Assembly: GCA_964573795.1 (NCBI GenBank)
Contig: CAZNMF010000049.1
Coordinates: 1,232-65,231, forward strand
Direction of reading: 5' to 3'
DNA length: 64,000 bases
From: an uncultured Solibacteraceae bacterium
GTDB lineage: Bacteria > Acidobacteriota > Vicinamibacteria > Vicinamibacterales > SCN-69-37
Position numbers and translations under genes: made by a program. Under the pieces are notes generated by a model. The model had not been told where the DNA came from and did not search any database. It saw only the letters and a program-made list of their open reading frames with translations. Of this stretch, positions 18,560 through 45,295 are shown in pieces. Position 1 is the stretch's first letter. Each line of letters starts with the position of its first letter.

Positions 18560-21500
18560 TCGGTTCGTCCTCGTCTCTCGCGTTTCGCTCGCTGCTGAAG
18601 TCCGCGGCGCATCGTGCCGGTCTGGATCGGTCCGCCCCCGAGACGACGGGCCTCACGCCGCAGGCGCTCGCCTGGCATGCCGCCGTCCTCGCGCAGGAGA
18701 CGCCGATCCTGCTCGTCGTGCCGACGGACGCCGATGTCGAGCAGGTGGTCGCCGATGCGCGGCTGTTTCTCAGCGTCCTCCTGGGCCTGTCCGATCGCGA
18801 CGTGGAGGACGCCGTCCTCGGGTGCCCATCGCAGGAAGTCGATCCCTATCGCGGGCTCGCGCCACACCTCGAGGTCGCGTCAGCGCGCGCGCGCGCGTTG
18901 TTCGCGCTCGCCTCCGGCAGCGCGAAGCTCGTGGTCGTCTCGGCGCGCGCGTTGCTGCCGAAGCTCAGCGATCCCGAACGTTTCGCCCGCGCCGGCATCT
19001 CGCTGCATGCCGGCGTGGAGATCGCACCGCAGGACCTGGGCGATCGGCTGGCCGTCGCGGGCTTTGCGCCGGAAGATCCCGTCGACGAGCACGGCGAGCT
19101 CTGCGTGCGCGGCGGCGTCGTCGATTTCTATCCCGCGTCCGAGACGACGCCGATCCGCCTCGAGTTCATCGGCGACATCGTCGAGTCGATCCGCCGCTTC
19201 GACAGCGCGACACAGCGATCGCTCGCGGCAATCGATCGCGTCACGATCGCGCCGCAGCGCGAGCTGTTGCCGGATCCCGTGCGGCCGGACGATCCGGCGG
19301 CCGCGGATCGATCCGCCACGATCGTCGACTACGCGCGCCGCGCTCGCGCGCAGGTCATCGTCTTCGAGCCAGACGACGTCGCCGAGCGTGGAAGCAGCCT
19401 CGAGCGCCAGTGGCGGCAGTCGGCCGAGGACGCCGCGGCCCGTCATCCGTCGGCCCTGCCGTACGAGTCGATCGCGGCGGATTGGGAGCTCGTCACGACG
19501 TGGCTGTCGCGCGCGCATCGCGTGAGCGCGCTGGCCATCGACGAGTCGCGGGAGTCGGCGCACATCGCCAGCGTGCCGGCGCTGGAATATCGCGGCCGGA
19601 TCGGCGATTGGGCCGCCGAGATCCGCCAGGCGCGCGAGCGCGGCGAGACGGTCGTGTTCGTCTCCGCCACGCCCGGGCGCGCCGAGCGCATCATCGAGAT
19701 TCTCGCCGACTACGAAGTGCGGGCGCGCGCGGTGCGCGAGGCCGACGATCTCGCCAATGCGGCCGTGCTCGTCGCCACGGGCCGTCTGTCGCGCGGCTTC
19801 CACCTGCCGTCGGGCGGGATTCTCTTCTTTGCCGAGACCGATCTCTTCGAGGAAGAGCGCCGCGTGCACGAGCGCCGCCGCGCGTCGACGCGCAGCTTTT
19901 TCTCCGACTTCCGCGATCTGAAGATCGGCGATCTCGTCGTCCACGTCGACAACGGCATCGGACGATTCGTCGGCCTCAAACGGCTGACGGTCACGCCCGG
20001 CCAGCCGCCGCAGGAGTTCATGGAGCTGCGGTACGCCGGCGAGGACAAGCTCTTCGTTCCGCTCGAGCGGCTCGATCTCGTCCAGAAGTACACGGGCGGC
20101 GCGGCGCCGGCGCTCGACAAGCTCGGCGGCACGACGTGGGAGAAGGCGAAGACGCGCGTCAAGAAGGCGATGCGCGACATGGCCGAAGAGCTGCTGAAGC
20201 TCTACGCGGCGCGCAAGGCCGTGGCGGGACACGCCTTCAGCCCGGACTCGCACTGGCAGCAGGAGTTCGCCGACGCCTTCGAGTACGACCTCACGTCCGA
20301 TCAGCAATCGGCGATCGCCGACATCACGCGCGACATGGAGTCGACGACGCCGATGGACCGGCTGCTGTGCGGCGACGTCGGCTATGGCAAGACCGAGGTC
20401 GCGATGCGCGCGGCGTTCAAGGCCGTCATCGACGGCAAGCAGGTCGCGTTCCTCGCGCCGACCACGGTGCTCGCGTTTCAGCACGCGCGGACGTTGAAGG
20501 AGCGGTTCGCCGGTTTTCCCGTGCGGATCGACATGGTCAGCCGCTTCAGATCGAAACAGGAGCAGCAGGAGATCCTCGAGCAGGTCTCGCGTGGCCAGAT
20601 CGACATCATCGTCGGCACGCACCGGCTGCTGTCGAAGGACGTCGCGTTCCGCGATCTCGGCCTGCTGGTCGTCGACGAAGAGCAGCGATTCGGCGTCGCG
20701 CACAAGGAGCGCATCAAGCAGCTCCGCAAGCGCGTCGACGTGCTGACGATGACGGCGACGCCCATTCCGCGCACGCTGAACATGTCGCTCGTCGGCATTC
20801 GCGACATGTCCGTGATCGAGACGCCGCCGCGCGATCGGCTGGCGATCCAGACGCAGGTCGCCAAGTTCGACACGGAGGTCATCACGCGCGCGATCCGCAC
20901 CGAGCTCGAGCGCGGCGGACAGGTGTACTTCGTCCACAACCGCGTCGAGTCGATCTACTCGATGGCGAACCTCGTCGGCCGGCTCGTGCCCGAGGCGCGG
21001 CTCGTCGTCGGCCACGGGCAGATGGGCGACGACGCCCTCGAGAAGGTGATGGTCGACTTCGTCTCGCACCAGTTCGACGTGCTGATTGCGACGACCATCG
21101 TCGAAAACGGGCTCGACATCCCGAACGCGAACACGATCGTCATCAATCGCGCGGATCGCTACGGCCTCGCGCAGCTCTATCAGCTTCGCGGCCGCGTCGG
21201 CCGCGCCGATCGCCGGGCGTACGCGTATCTGCTGATTCCGGCGGAGCAGACGTTGTCGCCGATCGCGCGCCGGCGGCTGGCGGCGATTCGCGAGTTCAGC
21301 GATCTCGGCAGCGGGTTCCGCATCGCGGCGCTGGATTTGGAGATCCGCGGCGCGGGTAATCTGCTCGGCGGACAGCAGAGCGGCCACATCGAGGCCGTCG
21401 GCTTCGACATGTACACGAAGCTCCTCGATCAGACGATCCGCGAGCTGAAGGGCGAGGACCTGGAAGACGAGCGCCGCGCGGCCGTCAATCTGCGGCTCGA

Positions 21501-31943: not shown

Positions 31944-33725
31944 ATGCAACCGCCATCCGTTCAACCGCAGCCGACGACCCTGTCCGGGAACGAGCGTGAC
32001 ATCCTGCTGACGCTGTTCGATCTCGGCCGGAAGATCGCCTCGGTCATCGAGCTCGACGAGCTGCTGCCACGCATTCCTGAGCTGGTCGGCCGGTTGATTC
32101 CATTCGACGCGTTCGCGGTCTATCTCGTCAGCGAAAAGCGGCAGATGTTCAAGCTCGGCTACGCCATCGGGTATCCGGACGACGCCGCGCGCGCCGAGCT
32201 CAGCCTGTCGGACGGGGTGCTCGGACGCGTGGTGACGACGCAGCAGCCGCTCGTCATCGGCGACGTCACCGCCGACCCGAGTTACGTCAGCGTCGTGCCA
32301 GGCATGCACGCGACGCTCGCGGTGCCGCTGATCCACAAGTCGAAGGCGATCGGCGTCCTGAACGTGCTCAGCCGCGAGCGCGATCGCTATTCGGAGCGCG
32401 ACGTCGCCATCCTGCGCCAGTTCGCCGCGCACGTTGCCACCGCGCTCGTCAACGCGCGCCTGTTTGCGCAGGAACGTCACGACGCCGAAGCGTTCGAGAC
32501 GCTGGCGGAGGTCGGCCGCGAGATGGCCGGCCTGCTCGATCTCGATCGGCTGCTCGCGCGCATCGCGCAGCTCGGACGGCGGCTCGTCGACTATCGGACG
32601 TTCGGCATCCTGCTCCTGAACGAGGCGACCGGCGAGCTCGAGATCAAGGCCGCCGTGCAGTACGGCGAACAGGTCGTCCTGCCGAAGGTACCGGTCGGCG
32701 AAGGCCTCGTCGGGTACGCGGCCAAGTATCGCGAGCCGGTCTACGCGCCCGACGTCTCGAAGGATCCGCGCTATATCCAGGTGCTCGAGGACGTGCGCTC
32801 CGAGCTCGTCGTGCCGATGCTCGTCAAGGATCGCTGCGTCGGCGTGTTCGATCTCGAAAGCCCCGACCTCGACGCGTTCTCCAAGCGCGACATCGAGATC
32901 CTCAAGCTGCTGGCGAGCCAGGCGGCCGTGGCGATCGAGAACGCGCGGCTCTATGCCGAGCTGTCCGCCAACGAGGCGCGGCTCGAGCGGGAGCTGCGCT
33001 TCGCGCAGCGCGTGCAGACGGCGCTGCTGCCGACGCAATTGCCGAAAAAGGTCCGCGGCGTGGATCTGGCCGTCTCGTTCGCGCCGGCGCGCGAGCTCGG
33101 CGGCGACTTCCACGACCTGCTCGTCCCCGAGTCCAACACGCTCATCGTGGCGGTGGGCGACGTGTCGGGCAAGGGCGTGCCCGCCGCGCTGTATTCCGTG
33201 TTCGCCGGCGAGCTGGTGCGCGGCCGCACGTTCCGCCGCCGCTATCTGCCGGAGCGATCGTCGCCAGCCAAAGTGCTGATGTCGATCAACACGATCCTCC
33301 ACGAACGACAGTTGGAGGAGTACTACTGCACGCTGTGCTACGCGTTCTTCGATTTGAAACGGCGGACCGTGACGCTCGCGAATTCGGGCGTGCCGTATCC
33401 GATCCGCGTCACCCATGGCGTCGTCAGCCAGATCGAGCTGCCGGGCGTGCCGTTGGGATCGTTCTTCGGTGTGAGCTACGACGAGGTCACGCTGCCGCTG
33501 GAGATCGGCGACGTGTTCTTCTTCGGATCCGACGGCGTGTTCGAGGCGATGAACGCGGCAAGTGAGGAGTTCTCGTCCGCGCGCGTCATGGAGATCGTCC
33601 GCGACGCCCGCACGCAGTCCGCCGCCGAGATCGTCGATCGCGTCTCGCAGGCGATCGAAAGCCATCGCGCCGGCTTTCCTTCCAACGACGACACGACGAT
33701 GATCGCGCTCCGGATCACGGAGTAA
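31944..33725 (+). CDS. GAF-GAF-PP2C (SpoIIE/RsbU-type) serine phosphatase
   Basis: Two GAF-like modules (...GVLGRVVTTQQPLVIGDV...AVPL...; ...GLVGYAAKYREPVYAPDV...VVPM...), followed by ...RELGGDFHDLL...VAVGDVSGKGVPAAL...GSDGVFEA...NDDTTMIALRI. Confidence 0.85.
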   Translation: MQPPSVQPQPTTLSGNERDILLTLFDLGRKIASVIELDELLPRIPELVGRLIPFDAFAVYLVSEKRQMFKLGYAIGYPDDAARAELSLSDGVLGRVVTTQQPLVIGDVTADPSYVSVVPGMHATLAVPLIHKSKAIGVLNVLSRERDRYSERDVAILRQFAAHVATALVNARLFAQERHDAEAFETLAEVGREMAGLLDLDRLLARIAQLGRRLVDYRTFGILLLNEATGELEIKAAVQYGEQVVLPKVPVGEGLVGYAAKYREPVYAPDVSKDPRYIQVLEDVRSELVVPMLVKDRCVGVFDLESPDLDAFSKRDIEILKLLASQAAVAIENARLYAELSANEARLERELRFAQRVQTALLPTQLPKKVRGVDLAVSFAPARELGGDFHDLLVPESNTLIVAVGDVSGKGVPAALYSVFAGELVRGRTFRRRYLPERSSPAKVLMSINTILHERQLEEYYCTLCYAFFDLKRRTVTLANSGVPYPIRVTHGVVSQIELPGVPLGSFFGVSYDEVTLPLEIGDVFFFGSDGVFEAMNAASEEFSSARVMEIVRDARTQSAAEIVDRVSQAIESHRAGFPSNDDTTMIALRITE

Positions 33726-33731
33726 GCGATC

Positions 33732-33864
33732 GCCCGGGTCTGAAGACCGGGCTATATCGGGCTACGGGCTACAGGCTACGGGCTACAGGCGACGGGCGAC
33801 GGACATCAAGCCTCACCCGCGTGTCTGTCTGCGTACAGATGTAGGCCGGGTCTTCAGACCCGGC
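33732..33864. repeat. Pair of mutually inverted GC-rich hairpins about 113 bp apart (REPIN/BIME-like doublet)
   Basis: Left hairpin gcccgggtcTGAAgaccgggc (33732-33752, one bulge). Right hairpin gccgggtcTTCAgacccggc (33845-33864, perfect 8 bp), preceded by GTAG. The two are reverse complements of each other. Confidence 0.45.
33759..33802. repeat. 7-bp tandem array (GGGCTAC)n, 6 units
   Basis: GGGCTAC GGGCTAC AGGCTAC GGGCTAC AGGCGAC GGGCGAC, read directly. Located inside the hairpin doublet. Confidence 0.85.
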
Positions 33865-33874
33865 GATCAGAAGC

Positions 33875-33903
33875 CCCCGGACCGGAGATCAACCGGTCCG
33901 GGG
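33875..33903. other. Perfect 11-bp stem hairpin CCCCGGACCGG-agatcaa-CCGGTCCGGGG
   Basis: Read directly. Lies between convergent genes and has no U-tract on either strand, so it is not a canonical intrinsic terminator. Confidence 0.4.
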
Positions 33904-34201
33904 ATGGAGCGAGGTCGGAACGGGGAAACGTACACGAGAACGGAAAGAAGAGAACGCGGAAGTGAGCCGCCACTTGTCGGTGAACGAACGGCCGGAGTGC
34001 GACGATGCCAGCGCCTGCCTGTCGTTGTTGACGCACCCCGGTGACGCCTGACGGCTCGCGCCATTGGACTTCAAGACGCGTGCCGTACCGCGCGCGCGAA
34101 AACGCGCGCGTCGCGCCGGCAAAAATTGGTGATGTCCGCTTCAAAGGACCGCACGTGCGAGGCCAGTGCCCCGCGCCGGGGACAGCCGCCCCGGCCCGCG
34201 A

Positions 34202-35398
34202 TCAGGCCTGCGCGACGTGCGCGGCTGCCGTCGTCTCGCACGGATTGATCATCGTCGCGAACTGCGCGGCGATCAGGCGGGCGAGGGCGACGACGTCGCC
34301 CGACGGTTTGGTCTCGTAGACTTCGGCGGCCAGGACGCCGTTGCAGCCCTCGGCGGTGACGAGCGGGACTGCGATCGCGCTCGTGGTGCCTGGGCCGGTG
34401 CCCGGAACGGTCTGCGGGCGCACCGTGCGGTAGGACAGAGACGTCACGTTCTCCGCGTCGACATCCAGCGCGTTGAGCTTGAGGAGGACCCGCTCCGAAT
34501 AGCCGTGCGTGAGGACGGGAAGCAGGCTCGTCCGCTCCTGGTTCACGACCCAGAGAATGAGACCGCTGGCCTCGAGAACCTTCGCGGTGCGCTCGAGCAG
34601 CGTCTGCATGTCGCGTGCGTCCATCACGCGAGCCAGATCCACGCAGAGCTCGGCGGCTTCAGTCAGGTTGACCGGCGGCAGGGCTGGCGGTGCCGGAACG
34701 GTGAGCTTGATGGGCGCCGGTGTGGTCGCGCTCGTCGCGGCCGGCGACTTGACCGGCGGCGGCAGCTCACGAAGCATGTCGGCGATCGTCGCCGGAGTCG
34801 CTTCGGACGCGCGGCTGGCACGGCCGGCGGCGAACGACAGCACCAGCACGGCCAGAAGCGCGAGCGGCGCCATGACAAGCCGGACGATCGACTGCTTGTT
34901 CAGCGTGGCCGATGCGGTCTCGATCGCGGCCGTACGGGCGGCCGTGAGCTCGCTGGCGACGAGTTGGGCCGGCGCTGCGCTGTCGGTGAAGATGACGTCC
35001 GACGCGACGAATCGCTGATCGCTTTGCAGCGCCGTCCGCGCGCGCTTGTCCTGGCTCATCAGATCCGCGATCGCGGACGTCGCGGCTTCGACATGGCCTG
35101 CAGCCGCCGGGCTGCCGACCGCATCACGCAAGCGCATCAGGCCCGCATCGAACTGCTCGGACAGCTCCGTCGCGCGCCGCATCCAGAAGTCCGGGCTCTG
35201 GTTGGCGGCCAGATACGACGCCTGTGCCGCGCGCAGATCGGAGAGCGTCACGGACAGCGCGGCGGTCTCCGTCTCGACGGTCGAGAGGCGTGACTGTCCG
35301 GCAGTGATGGATTGATGGAGGCGGAAATCCTGGAGGGCGGTTCCGGCGGCAATCAGACAAGCAAGCGTCAGCAGAACACGAAAGCGGGTGCTCTTCAC
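34202..35398 (-). CDS. Membrane-anchored protein with helical N-terminal region and C-terminal GAF-like domain
   Basis: 398 aa with a GTG start. Signal/TM at the N-terminus and a second TM (...IVRLVMAPLALLAVLVLSFAAG...). The C-terminus (...LILWVVNQERTSLLPVLTHGYS...AIAVPLVTAEGCNGVLAAE...) looks GAF-like. Confidence 0.65.
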   Translation of the reverse strand: MKSTRFRVLLTLACLIAAGTALQDFRLHQSITAGQSRLSTVETETAALSVTLSDLRAAQASYLAANQSPDFWMRRATELSEQFDAGLMRLRDAVGSPAAAGHVEAATSAIADLMSQDKRARTALQSDQRFVASDVIFTDSAAPAQLVASELTAARTAAIETASATLNKQSIVRLVMAPLALLAVLVLSFAAGRASRASEATPATIADMLRELPPPVKSPAATSATTPAPIKLTVPAPPALPPVNLTEAAELCVDLARVMDARDMQTLLERTAKVLEASGLILWVVNQERTSLLPVLTHGYSERVLLKLNALDVDAENVTSLSYRTVRPQTVPGTGPGTTSAIAVPLVTAEGCNGVLAAEVYETKPSGDVVALARLIAAQFATMINPCETTAAAHVAQA

Positions 35399-40112: not shown

Positions 40113-41317
40113 CGGCTCAGGAATCTGGCGGTGAAATCCGCCATGTCGTCGTAGATCGCGTCGAGCTCGTCAGGCGGCGCCAGATAGACGATGCGGAAGA
40201 AGCCGTCGGCCGGCGCGGTGCCGAACCCCGATCCGTACACGCACAGGATGCCCGTGTCGCGCAGCAGGGCGAGGATGTAGTCCTGATCCGTCGTGCCGCG
40301 CGGCAGCGTGACCTGCGGCATTGCGTAGAACGCTGCGCGCGGCATCACGCAGCGCATCCCCGGAATCGCCGACAGCCTTCTGGTCGTCAGCTCCGCGCGT
40401 ACGTGCAGGGCGTGCGCGAACGCGGCTTGATGGGCGCGATCGCCGTTGAGCGCCGGCTCGATCGCGTACTGCATCGGGCCAGGGCTGCACAGACGGCCGT
40501 CGGCCATCTTCCTGATGCCGGCGAGCACCTCATCGAGCCGACGGCAGTTGCTGACGACGAGCCATCCCGTCCGCCAGCCCGGCGCGAGATACGCCTTGGA
40601 CAGCGACGAGAAGGAGATGATTGGCGCGTCGGGCGCCAGCGATCCGATGAGCGGCGTGGGGCCGTCGAACGAGACGTCGCCGTACACCTCGTCGGCGAGG
40701 ATCGTCAGACCCGCGCGATCGGCGAAATCGATCACCGCGCGCCGCGTCGCTTCGGGATACACCGCGCCCGTCGGGTTGTTCGGATCGATGACGACGATCG
40801 CGCGCGTCGACGAGGTCGTGCGGCGGCGGATGTCGTCGAGATCGGGCTGCCAGCCGCGCTCGGGATCGGTGCGATAGTAGACGGCGCGCGCGCCGATCTT
40901 GGCCAGCACCGCGGTGTAGAGCGGATACGTCGGCGTCGGCACCAGCACTTCGTCGCCGGGATCGGCGAGCACGCTGAGCGCCAGCTCGATGCCCTCGGAC
41001 GTGCCTTGCGTGACGACGACGCGATCGGCGGGAACGGGCATGCCGCGGCGGGTGTACTCCTGCGCGACGGCGGCGCGCGCCGGCTCGATGCCGGCCGACG
41101 GCACGTAGCCGTTGTGGCCGTCCCGCATGGCGCGCTCGACCGCCTCAATCAGGTGCGGCGGCGTCCTGAACCCGAATTGGACGGGATCGCCGATGTTCAG
41201 ATAGCGCACCCGGCGGCCCGCCGCTTCGACCTTCTTCGCTTCGACGACGATGTTGCGGATCGCGTAGCTGAAGGCGTTCACGCGGGCAGAGACGTGGGCC
41301 GCGGCGCTCGTGGGCAT
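40109..41317 (-). CDS. Class I/II pyridoxal-phosphate aminotransferase (AlaA-like)
   Basis: 402 aa with ...YLNIGDP...GYVPSAGI..., ...VIDPNNPTGAVY..., and the PLP-lysine context SFSSLSKAYLAPGWRTGW. Confidence 0.9.
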   Translation of the reverse strand: MPTSAAAHVSARVNAFSYAIRNIVVEAKKVEAAGRRVRYLNIGDPVQFGFRTPPHLIEAVERAMRDGHNGYVPSAGIEPARAAVAQEYTRRGMPVPADRVVVTQGTSEGIELALSVLADPGDEVLVPTPTYPLYTAVLAKIGARAVYYRTDPERGWQPDLDDIRRRTTSSTRAIVVIDPNNPTGAVYPEATRRAVIDFADRAGLTILADEVYGDVSFDGPTPLIGSLAPDAPIISFSSLSKAYLAPGWRTGWLVVSNCRRLDEVLAGIRKMADGRLCSPGPMQYAIEPALNGDRAHQAAFAHALHVRAELTTRRLSAIPGMRCVMPRAAFYAMPQVTLPRGTTDQDYILALLRDTGILCVYGSGFGTAPADGFFRIVYLAPPDELDAIYDDMADFTARFLSR

Positions 41318-41415
41318 AGAGCCCTATCGTAGCGTAGTGGCCGGAAAATCCCGGCGCGCGTGCAGGTGCAGGCATCGAGGCGAGGGGCCGATAGATGGGG
41401 AAGAGAGCACGAGGC

Positions 41416-41550
41416 GGGCGGCCACGGGGGGCCGCCCCTACGCGGGCTGCCGTCGGCGGTCTGCGGTCCGAGGATCCGGTGGCCCTTGTGGCCGCCTCGC
41501 AGGTCACTGCGGATTGGCCGACGCTGCAGGGGCGGCCCCCGTGGCCGCCC
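41416..41550. repeat. Second pair of mutually inverted GC-rich hairpins about 114 bp apart (REPIN/BIME-like doublet)
   Basis: Left hairpin gggcggccACGGGGggccgccc (41416-41437), followed by CTAC, which reads GTAG on the other strand. Right hairpin gggcggccCCCGTggccgccc (41530-41550), preceded by GCAG. Same overall geometry as 33732-33864 but with different stem sequences. Confidence 0.45.
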
Positions 41551-41574
41551 GTCACCCGTCGCCCGTGGCCCGCT

Positions 41575-42189
41575 ATGTCCAAAAACTTCGCATCCACACT
41601 CCTCGTTCTCGCCGCGCTCGTCGCGGCGCCGCAGCTGGCCTCCGCGCAGGGCTTTGCGCTCGGGCCGCGTATGAGCTTCGTTCGCGGCGACGTGCCGTCC
41701 GGCACGCCGTCGACGCGCTTCCTTGGCGGGACGGTGCGGATGGGATCGTCGAAGCACGTCGCGTTCGAGCTGGCGCTCGACTATCGCAGCGAGACCAGCG
41801 TGGACGGCCTATCCCGGCTGCGCGAGCGGCCGTTCCAGGGATCGATGCTGCTGTTCCCCGTGCGATCGACCGTCGCGCCGTATCTGCTCGCGGGGTACGG
41901 CATCTATCAGCAGACCTACGACACCTTGGATCCGGCCAACGGTCTGGCGCTCTCGTCGACCGTCTCGCGCAAGAGCGGCGCGCACATCGGCTTCGGCGCG
42001 GAAGTGCTCGTCGTCCGTCACGCGGCCTTCTACATCGACTATCGTCTGCGTTTCGTCCGGTTCGGATCGCCGGAAGGCGACGAGGATCCCGTCGACATCC
42101 CGGGGCAGTCGGTCATCCCCGGCCTCAAGAACGTGCAGTTGTCGCATCAGGGGTCGATGATCACGAGCGGCGTGGCATTTTATTTCTGA
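41575..42189 (+). CDS. Outer-membrane beta-barrel protein (OmpW/porin-like small barrel)
   Basis: Inner start MSKNFASTLLVLAALVAAPQLASAQG (signal peptide). Alternating-hydrophobic beta-strand pattern and a C-terminal ...GVAFYF. Confidence 0.65.
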   Translation: MSKNFASTLLVLAALVAAPQLASAQGFALGPRMSFVRGDVPSGTPSTRFLGGTVRMGSSKHVAFELALDYRSETSVDGLSRLRERPFQGSMLLFPVRSTVAPYLLAGYGIYQQTYDTLDPANGLALSSTVSRKSGAHIGFGAEVLVVRHAAFYIDYRLRFVRFGSPEGDEDPVDIPGQSVIPGLKNVQLSHQGSMITSGVAFYF

Positions 42190-42719: not shown

Positions 42720-42783
42720 TATCTCGCTATCTCTCTATCTCCCTATCGCACTATCTGATCATCGAGCTATCGGGTTATCTGCC
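42720..42783. repeat. 8-bp tandem array, 8 units, consensus (C)TATCTCN
   Basis: TATC (or CATC) begins at 42720, 42728, 42736, 42744, 42752, 42760, 42768 and 42776, an exact 8-bp period read directly. Confidence 0.85.
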
Positions 42784-42786
42784 TCT

Positions 42787-42814
42787 TTCGAACTTCGTAC
42801 TTCGAACTTCGAAC
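42787..42814. repeat. 7-bp tandem array (TTCGAAC)n, 4 units
   Basis: TTCGAAC TTCGTAC TTCGAAC TTCGAAC, ending 9 nt before the SDR start codon. Confidence 0.85.
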
Positions 42815-43563: not shown

Positions 43564-43573
43564 GAAGACCCCT

Positions 43574-43629
43574 GACAACTCAGACCTGAGAACCCAGAAC
43601 TGAGAACCGAGAACCGAGAACCCAGAATC
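43574..43629. repeat. 7-bp tandem array (GAGAACC)n, 8 units
   Basis: GACAACT CAGACCT GAGAACC CAGAACT GAGAACC GAGAACC GAGAACC CAGAATC. Fills the SDR-nitroreductase spacer. Confidence 0.85.
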
Positions 43630-45221: not shown

Positions 45222-45295
45222 GATGATCCGCAGATAGTCCGATAGCCAGATGCGAGATAGTGCGTCAGCGCGATAGTGAGATAGCGCGATACAGC
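45222..45295. repeat. 8-bp-period array of GATAG-containing units (reverse complement of the 42720 array)
   Basis: GATAG, GATGC or GATAC begins at 45233, 45241, 45249, 45256, 45272, 45280 and 45288. This is an 8-bp period with one 1-nt slip. Units such as GAGATAGT and GCGATAGT are the reverse complement of CTATCTCN. Confidence 0.7.

Follow-up and report, generated by a model that had tools for sequence, protein, structure and literature searches.

Two intergenic regions of a soil Vicinamibacterales genome each hold a pair of mutually inverted, GC-rich hairpins, which raises the question of what these pairs are and how they came to lie there. The whole stretch of DNA analyzed here, termed the window, comprises 64,000 nucleotides at 64-71% GC. 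Both pairs described in an original prediction are confirmed, the hairpins lying ~112 bp apart in each case, and we consider it highly probable that each locus is a tail-to-tail homodimer, with tags facing inward, of a GTAG-tagged REP, loci A and B being derived from different families. REPs are short (20-40 bp), GC-rich palindromic stem-loops with a GT[AG]G tetranucleotide 0-2 nt from the stem foot, dispersed through bacterial genomes by RAYT, a domesticated transposase. The parts of both loci are compiled in Table 1.

Locus A occupies the intergenic region between two convergent genes, a GAF-SpoIIE phosphatase gene on the plus strand (TAA stop at 33723-33725) and a GAF_3 protein gene on the minus strand (stop at 34202). 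Its two 19-nt arms (33734-33752 and 33845-33863) are 95% complementary and 92 nt apart, and the left REP-A copy begins 3 nt past the phosphatase stop codon. Complementarity runs past the hairpin itself, with GATCG on the outside and CTAYATC on the inside, so that the repeated unit measures ~33-36 nt. One contig of MAG GCA_035550115.1 and eight JGI metagenome contigs encode exactly this phosphatase protein, whose homologues are named Vicinamibacterales or Acidobacteria. At locus B, likewise intergenic, two 23-nt arms (41415-41437 and 41529-41551), 87% complementary and 91 nt apart, lie between divergent genes, an aminotransferase gene on the minus strand (start at 41317) and an outer-membrane beta-barrel gene on the plus strand, whose ATG (41575) is preceded at a distance of only 2 nt by the end of a CGCCCGT tract. 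With convergent genes at one locus and divergent genes at the other, the two dimers are placed in different transcriptional settings.

Tags are located directly at the inner stem foot of all four copies: CTAT at 33752-33755 (ATAG on the other strand) and GTAG at 33841-33844 in locus A, CTAC at 41438-41441 and GCAG at 41526-41529 in locus B. Only two of the four are canonical GTAG, the remaining ones being GCAG and ATAG, which weighs against the REP reading, and the distribution is as first described, with GTAG or GCAG at three copies and a deviant tag at the left copy of locus A. The proposed 8-bp stems apply to the right copy of locus A and to both copies of locus B, all of which are perfect and enclose loops of 4-6 nt; the left hairpin of locus A departs from this description, having a 7-bp stem plus one bulged base.

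Table 1 Parts of the two REP dimers and adjoining repeats, in window coordinates
Feature	Position	Strand	Description
Left REP-A copy	33728..33759	-	Decayed: CCCGGGTC-TGAA-GACC_GGG, one bulge; ATAG instead of GTAG on the - strand
Heptamer microsatellite in dimer A spacer	33758..33802	+	GGGCTAC/AGGCTAC/GGGCGAC, 6.4 copies
Right REP-A copy	33835..33868	+	Canonical CAGAT-GTAG-GCCGGGTC-TTCA-GACCCGGC-GATC
Third hairpin	33875..33903	+	11-bp stem without GTAG; not part of the REP dimer
Left REP-B copy	41416..41441	-	Canonical GTAG-GGGCGGCC-CCCCGT-GGCCGCCC on the - strand
Dimer B spacer	41442..41525		84 nt; weak period-7 tract 41442-41468; no match in the sequences compared
Right REP-B copy	41526..41550	+	Tag GCAG; conspecific contigs L001 and L003 have 1 nt more in the loop
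Period-7 tract	41546..41572	+	CGCCCGT, 3.9 copies; overlaps the 3' arm of the right REP-B copy

A genome of 68% GC might offer such palindromes by chance, and the window indeed holds ~35 perfect hairpins with stems of at least 8 bp as well as 23 inverted pairs at loose thresholds. Accidental palindromes, or an assembly artefact, are nevertheless a negligible prospect as an account of the two doublets. Allowing at most three mismatches, the 20-mer of locus A has 3 matches in the window compared with 0.05 expected from window shuffles, and the 26-mer of locus B has 1 compared with 0.00. Folded as single-stranded DNA, locus A reaches -41.6 kcal/mol (z = -6.15) and locus B -59.4 kcal/mol (z = -5.15), each lower than all 200 shuffles. 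In both cases the doublet folds as one long hairpin in which ~30 bp pair the left arm with the right, as an inverted REP doublet, the term originally used, should be able to do. The same structures are found in eight independent assemblies, which excludes an artefact of assembly, and identical sequences occur in hundreds of other contigs. Within the 64-kb window, neither hairpin is found elsewhere, leaving one dimer per family, and GTAG is not enriched beside loosely defined hairpins, which speaks against the REP reading. The association with the tag was therefore tested at the level of the families.

Hairpins A and B belong to dispersed, tag-bearing repeat families. The REP-A type, GCCSGGTCTKMAGACCSGGC, was searched for as exact matches to the tag-free 18-mer CCGGGTCTGAAGACCSGG in one genome per species, yielding at least 121 exact matches in at least 115 loci; with its tag, the hairpin reads GTAG-GCCGGGTC-TTCA-GACCCGGC. 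Ninety-five of the 115 listed loci are labelled Acidobacteriota, Acidobacteria, Vicinamibacterales, Terriglobia or Solibacteraceae; there are several matches per genome, and single MAGs contribute up to nine REP-A loci among the matches listed. The 3' flank of the 121 listed matches reads CTAC in 55, CTCC in 32, CTGC in 6 and CCAC in 5 cases; on the other strand, the palindrome is thus preceded by GTAG, GGAG or GTGG. Many listed matches form compact dimers with a second, related tagged hairpin. One contig (L045, 6820-7090) contains a head-to-tail tandem array of whole REP-A units with a 41-nt period and at least six copies.

The REP-B type, GGGCGGCC-N5-6-GGCCGCCC, was searched for in JGI metagenomes with the tag-free 22-mer GGGCGGCCACGGGGGGCCGCCC. 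The hairpin, which with its tag reads GTAG-GGGCGGCC-CCCCGT-GGCCGCCC, has at least 137 matches on at least 120 metagenome contigs, and CTAC follows directly in 122 of the 137 listed matches. Host contigs (L125-L244) range from 47 to 73% GC, indicating that REP-B resides in many taxa. The 26-mer is identical across contigs of this GC range and is often paired with sibling REPs, e.g., GTAGGGGCAGGCCCCTGTGCCTGCCC. REPs are usually termed species-specific, and the identity of REP-B across taxa is therefore unusual. Among the 115 listed, mostly acidobacterial REP-A loci, REP-B is present in only one, a Vicinamibacterales contig carrying both families (L027), which weighs against our reading. The family of locus A is found mainly in Acidobacteriota and that of locus B across many taxa, and the suggestion that the differing stems of the two loci reflect two REP families holds.

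Members of both families adjoin genes for RAYT, the clearest associations being the REPtrons on contigs L111 and L252 and the in-frame REP-B on contig L205. L111 encodes an intact protein of 172 aa that passes the NCBIfam model NF047646, 'REP-associated tyrosine transposase', at 94.1 bits (cut-off 80), with a REP-A ~10 nt downstream of the gene and sibling REPs on both sides. On L252, an intact 167-aa Y1_Tnp gene is flanked on both sides by the exact hairpin GCCGGGTC-TGAA-GACCCGGC with a GTGG tag, and the right REP-A hairpin of the window is identical to the hairpin flanking the intact genes in L252 and L111. Directly upstream of the L252 gene, 3' halves of REP-A are repeated in tandem with a 24-nt period (~7 copies, 1690-1860). 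A third case is a frameshifted RAYT gene between REP-A copies on L047, part of a long-read MAG assembly; its translation, stitched by hand across frames, scores 114 bits with NF047646 and 34 bits with Pfam Y1_Tnp, and we regard it as sound because intact homologues at 73-80% identity exist, including that of L252.

RAYT-like genes adjoin or, in frame, enclose a REP-B match in 7 of the 120 listed contigs, namely L205 and six others. On L205 (519-1247, minus strand), REP-B doublets are read in frame within the gene itself, yielding the peptides VGAAPRGRP ... GQPQGGAPT, with one insert between the HUH motif (MPNHIHGI) and the C-terminal half and another at the C-terminus. Both types of RAYT have hundreds of database homologues named RayT by JGI. 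Neither of the two database searches returned a protein labelled Vicinamibacterales, a point against our reading, and phmmer, run with two RAYT queries on every stop-to-stop ORF, detected no RAYT in the 64-kb window or in contigs L001-L009. Given dispersed, tagged families that adjoin RAYT genes in other genomes, the identification of the hairpins as REP sequences with the GTAG signature is upheld. Following the published biochemistry of REP/RAYT systems (PMC3333891, PMC3479197, PMC8266576), a Y1 HUH enzyme, RAYT, would recognize the GTAG foot together with the hairpin on single-stranded DNA, and its cutting and rejoining would have brought REP copies to both sites. Once placed, the REPs would act, if at all, as stable stem-loops, which at locus A would lie in the 3' end of the phosphatase transcript and at locus B in the divergent promoter region.

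The inverted arrangement invites another interpretation, in which each ~134-bp doublet is a non-autonomous mobile element of constrained size, REPIN- or MITE-like, that is copied whole and ends in the two REPs as terminal inverted repeats. In its favour, an inverted REP doublet is what defines a REPIN (PMC3116915, PMC3337134), both doublets fold into the long arm-to-arm hairpin described above, and loci A and B are nearly equal in length, at 133 and 135 bp. This near-identity, the feature that first attracted attention, is correct for the window but does not extend to conspecific contigs or the sister lineage. In conspecific contigs that are 99.6-99.8% identical to the window, locus A measures 119, 133 or 140 bp, being 7 bp longer in L001 and L003 and 14 bp shorter in L006, all within the heptamer array between the arms, to which this variation (-14, 0, +7 bp) is owed. 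Contig L245 of the sister lineage, with a 96% identical phosphatase, has both REP-A copies at ~79 bp from start to start, ~100 bp in total, around a different interior (GTAGTCC GTGGCCT GTAGCCT). A shared architecture of ~134 bp is accordingly contradicted by spacing that is polymorphic in 7-bp steps within the population and different in the sister lineage, and that loci A and B are almost equally long is a coincidence.

Locus B varies less conspicuously, L001 and L003 carrying one extra C in the right loop. In L002, at ~19430-19465 (corresponding to window position 41400), a 32-bp heptamer-like insertion, GGCTTAC GGCTCAT GGCTTGC GGCCTAC, is located directly outside the left REP-B copy, the loop of which is also altered.

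Dimer gaps were determined by locating every GTAG-plus-hairpin in the fetched family loci and measuring the distance between neighbours. Inverted neighbours are mostly separated by 0-60 nt, with medians of 28-35 nt, and gaps of 80-100 nt are rare; a tabulation of pair spacing had been proposed as a check, and it does not support a ~134-bp unit. The gaps in the window, 85 nt in A and 84 nt in B, are themselves unusual by this measure and count to some extent against the dimer reading. An alignment of interiors had also been suggested, in search of MITE-like conservation. Compared with one another, with the remainder of the window and with ~1.7 Mb of related loci, the interiors gave no significant match, short heptamer-like stretches being the sole similarity, and a reading of the sequence revealed no target-site duplication or flanking direct repeat at either doublet. 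The loci consequently share with REPINs the inverted pair and the single hairpin, but the doublet is not what is repeated; as in MITEs, inverted termini are present, but without target-site duplication and around unique interiors. Taken together, spacers are not conserved, locus A changes its spacer length through a heptamer microsatellite, and a mobile unit of constrained size is an unlikely explanation. We therefore retain the tail-to-tail dimer of two separate REP copies.

Orthologous sites allow the insertions to be placed in time. Gene order around both loci is kept in relatives, yet among the relatives compared L245 alone shares the REP-A pair with the window lineage; REP-A is absent from the orthologous spacers of L247 (91% amino-acid identity), L248 (82%), L246 and L249 (both 79%), L251 (76%) and L250 (73%). 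The L246 spacer corresponding to locus B contains no REP-B, and this intergenic region measures 174 nt in relatives at 84-96% identity compared with 258 nt here. These comparisons show the REPs as apparent additions to conserved, syntenic intergenic regions, confined to the lineage that unites this organism with its closest relative. The left REP-A copy is decayed in the window and differently decayed in L245. As this copy is decayed and the site is common to L245, the REP-A copies appear old and not recently mobile, which points to an insertion that would predate the split between the window lineage and L245 and would have been inherited vertically since.

Position has been put to use in a further alternative, according to which the inverted hairpins are regulatory structures of the host that arose locally and have no link to RAYT: a bidirectional terminator or mRNA-stabilizing stem at locus A, operator-like palindromes in a divergent promoter at locus B. 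The left hairpin of locus A does lie a few nucleotides past a stop codon between convergent genes, and dimer B between divergent ones. Moreover, at the site of the REP-A dimer, L247 (91%) carries two inverted 8-mer arrays (2881-2985), ACATTNRG in five copies followed by CNAAATGT in four; since these arrays replace the dimer, the same post-stop spot has gained an inverted-repeat structure by another route, which hints at selection for a stem. Against a local origin, hundreds of unrelated sites in other genomes, some of them beside RAYT genes, carry these very 18-26-mers together with the GTAG tags. Scans detected no terminator-like site (GC stem plus T tract) in 33500-34400 or 41100-41800 and no consensus sigma-70 promoter at either locus. 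In relatives devoid of REPs, the conserved, untagged third hairpin already occupies the terminator position. We hence regard a purely local host origin as very unlikely. A host role acquired after insertion, for instance with the REPs forming a stable stem at the phosphatase mRNA 3' end, is possible and would be compatible with the REP dimer.

Because the third hairpin keeps its position in orthologous regions without REPs, it was probably present at the 3' end of the phosphatase gene ancestrally. Further downstream, at 33963-34090 on the plus strand, lies a strongly conserved intergenic block, shared by all eight species under comparison, whose phosphatases are 73-96% identical; it is present even in L250, which has another gene downstream. 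As both the hairpin and this block are conserved in relatives, the REP dimer appears to sit between the stop codon and older 3' structures. RNAalifold models the block as a ~100-nt hairpin on the plus strand with five compensatory pairs and several invariant G-U pairs, followed by the conserved motif TTCAAGAnGCGTGCCGT. It has no Rfam match, the best score being 21.6 bits compared with a gathering score of 88, and qualifies as a candidate structured RNA or 3'-UTR element of a type not yet described. Rfam likewise gave nothing at gathering thresholds across the whole window, and nothing credible at permissive E-values in 33700-34250; a scan for tRNA and tmRNA genes found none.

Heptamer repeats extend beyond the REP loci. 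Period-7 arrays are common in the intergenic regions of the window, with a unit sequence that differs from region to region, and period 7 accounts for 41 of 66 short tandem arrays in acidobacterial loci. Further arrays of 7 or 8 nt are found at 42720-42756, 42787-42814, 43572-43627 and 45240-45291, with units, one per region, TATCTCNC, TTCGAAC, GAGAACC and GATAGYGN; those at 42720 and 45240, 2.5 kb apart, are mutually reverse complementary. Arrays near REP-A often include the GTAG foot (the window, L245, L027, L020, L081 and L029). At locus A, the unit GGGCTAC adjoins ...GGGCTAT, and in L245 the units GTAGTCC/GTGGCCT/GTAGCCT adjoin GTAGGCC. This resemblance suggested that heptamer arrays may be built from the REP foot, seeded by RAYT nicking at the tag or by stalling of replication at the hairpin. 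A REP origin was tried and could not be established, with tetramer and proximity statistics that are weak: GTAG/CTAC is the top tetramer, present in 12 of 48 period-7 arrays, yet other tetramers reach 10, and arrays near REPs are ~2-fold more frequent than expected. Both the enrichment and the proximity could be explained by the fact that arrays and REPs are alike intergenic, and we consider such an origin quite improbable. If it were true, REP dimers of Vicinamibacterales would generate hypervariable spacers beside genes.

The length of heptamer tracts would change by replication slippage, the process offered for a general excess of heptamers in bacteria in work cited in PMC4692102 and PMC4679880. 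As those two articles present the intergenic heptamer microsatellites of Mrazek et al. 2007, with Xanthomonas GGGAATC as an instance, the arrays described here are alike in their period of 7, intergenic location, length variation among close relatives and occasional inverted arrays. They differ from that portrayal in that the unit changes with each intergenic region and that the locus A unit, GGGCTAC, resembles a REP foot.

One further GTAG-plus-hairpin of the window, at 222-245, was discarded as a possible fifth REP, as it falls in an AT-rich cluster of three DnaA-box-like 9-mers. These, ATTTCCACA, TTTTCCACA and TTTTCCACA on the minus strand, are contained within 32 nt (210-241) of AT-richer intergenic sequence. 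The only other DnaA-box match in the 64 kb, with one mismatch, is located inside the GAF-SpoIIE phosphatase coding sequence (32329-32337). The cluster may mark a promoter under DnaA control or belong to an origin.

Among described systems, the two loci most closely follow the tail-to-tail homodimers of the survey by Di Nocera, De Gregorio and Rocco 2013 (PMC3733652), where dimer partners are usually 20-100 bp apart and tail-to-tail spacers vary. Common to both are a short GC-rich stem-loop, an unpaired GTAG at one foot, the same REP used twice with tags inward, an extragenic location and a variable spacer within 20-100 bp; dimer A additionally shares the placement near a gene 3' end between convergent ORFs. 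The suggestion that the doublets might be something new is therefore not sustained, tail-to-tail REP homodimers with variable spacers of 20-100 bp having already been described there. Departures from that survey are the location of dimer B between divergent genes, a minority class in it, and the spacer of dimer A, which is largely a heptamer microsatellite. With the REPINs of Pseudomonas fluorescens SBW25 (Bertels and Rainey 2011, PMC3116915; PMC3337134), the loci share inverted doublets, a predicted single hairpin and an association of the family with single-copy RAYT genes. For SBW25, replication is ascribed to the doublet as a whole, which has a short spacer and exists in many near-identical copies in each genome; the loci here, in contrast, have long, polymorphic spacing and a unique interior, with one doublet per family in 64 kb.

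The E. coli REP/BIME and REPtron system (Ton-Hoang et al. 2012, PMC3333891; Messing et al. 2012, PMC3479197) likewise features the foot ...GGCCTAC, alternating orientation and RAYT genes flanked by their own REPs, as on L111, L252 and L047. E. coli BIMEs alternate REP types around conserved linker motifs and bind IHF, gyrase or Pol I; at the loci here no such linker motif was seen, each dimer repeats a single REP type, and no motif is common to the two spacers. The short, perfect 8-bp stems also differ from the long, bulged stems of E. coli REPs. Quentin et al. 2018 (PMC6006769) report REPs in frame inside the gene as a trait found in TnpA-REP subclass 2.4 alone, the members of this subclass being spread over scattered phyla. 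Genes of the L205 type share this trait, and the likeness is by that trait alone; no gene of the subclass 2.4 type was seen in the window.

Both loci are thus ordinary tail-to-tail REP dimers in a phylum where REPs have drawn little attention, a finding of modest importance that leaves the view of how REPs work unchanged. In practical terms, REP-B translates in frame and yields spurious or chimeric ORFs, which matters for annotation, and predicted proteomes will repeatedly contain its peptides, as inserts or as artefacts derived from REPs; the heptamer spacer, being polymorphic within one population, may serve strain typing. The series of orthologous sites cleanly illustrates the acquisition of REPs by a conserved intergenic region. 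Earlier descriptions of REP/RAYT systems concern mainly Proteobacteria, Cyanobacteria, Chloroflexi and the PVC group, and the GTAG REPs surveyed in PMC3733652 come from these same groups and not from Acidobacteriota. To these, the present analysis adds, for Acidobacteriota and among them the abundant and uncultured soil order Vicinamibacterales, two REP families complete with tags and cognate RAYT genes.
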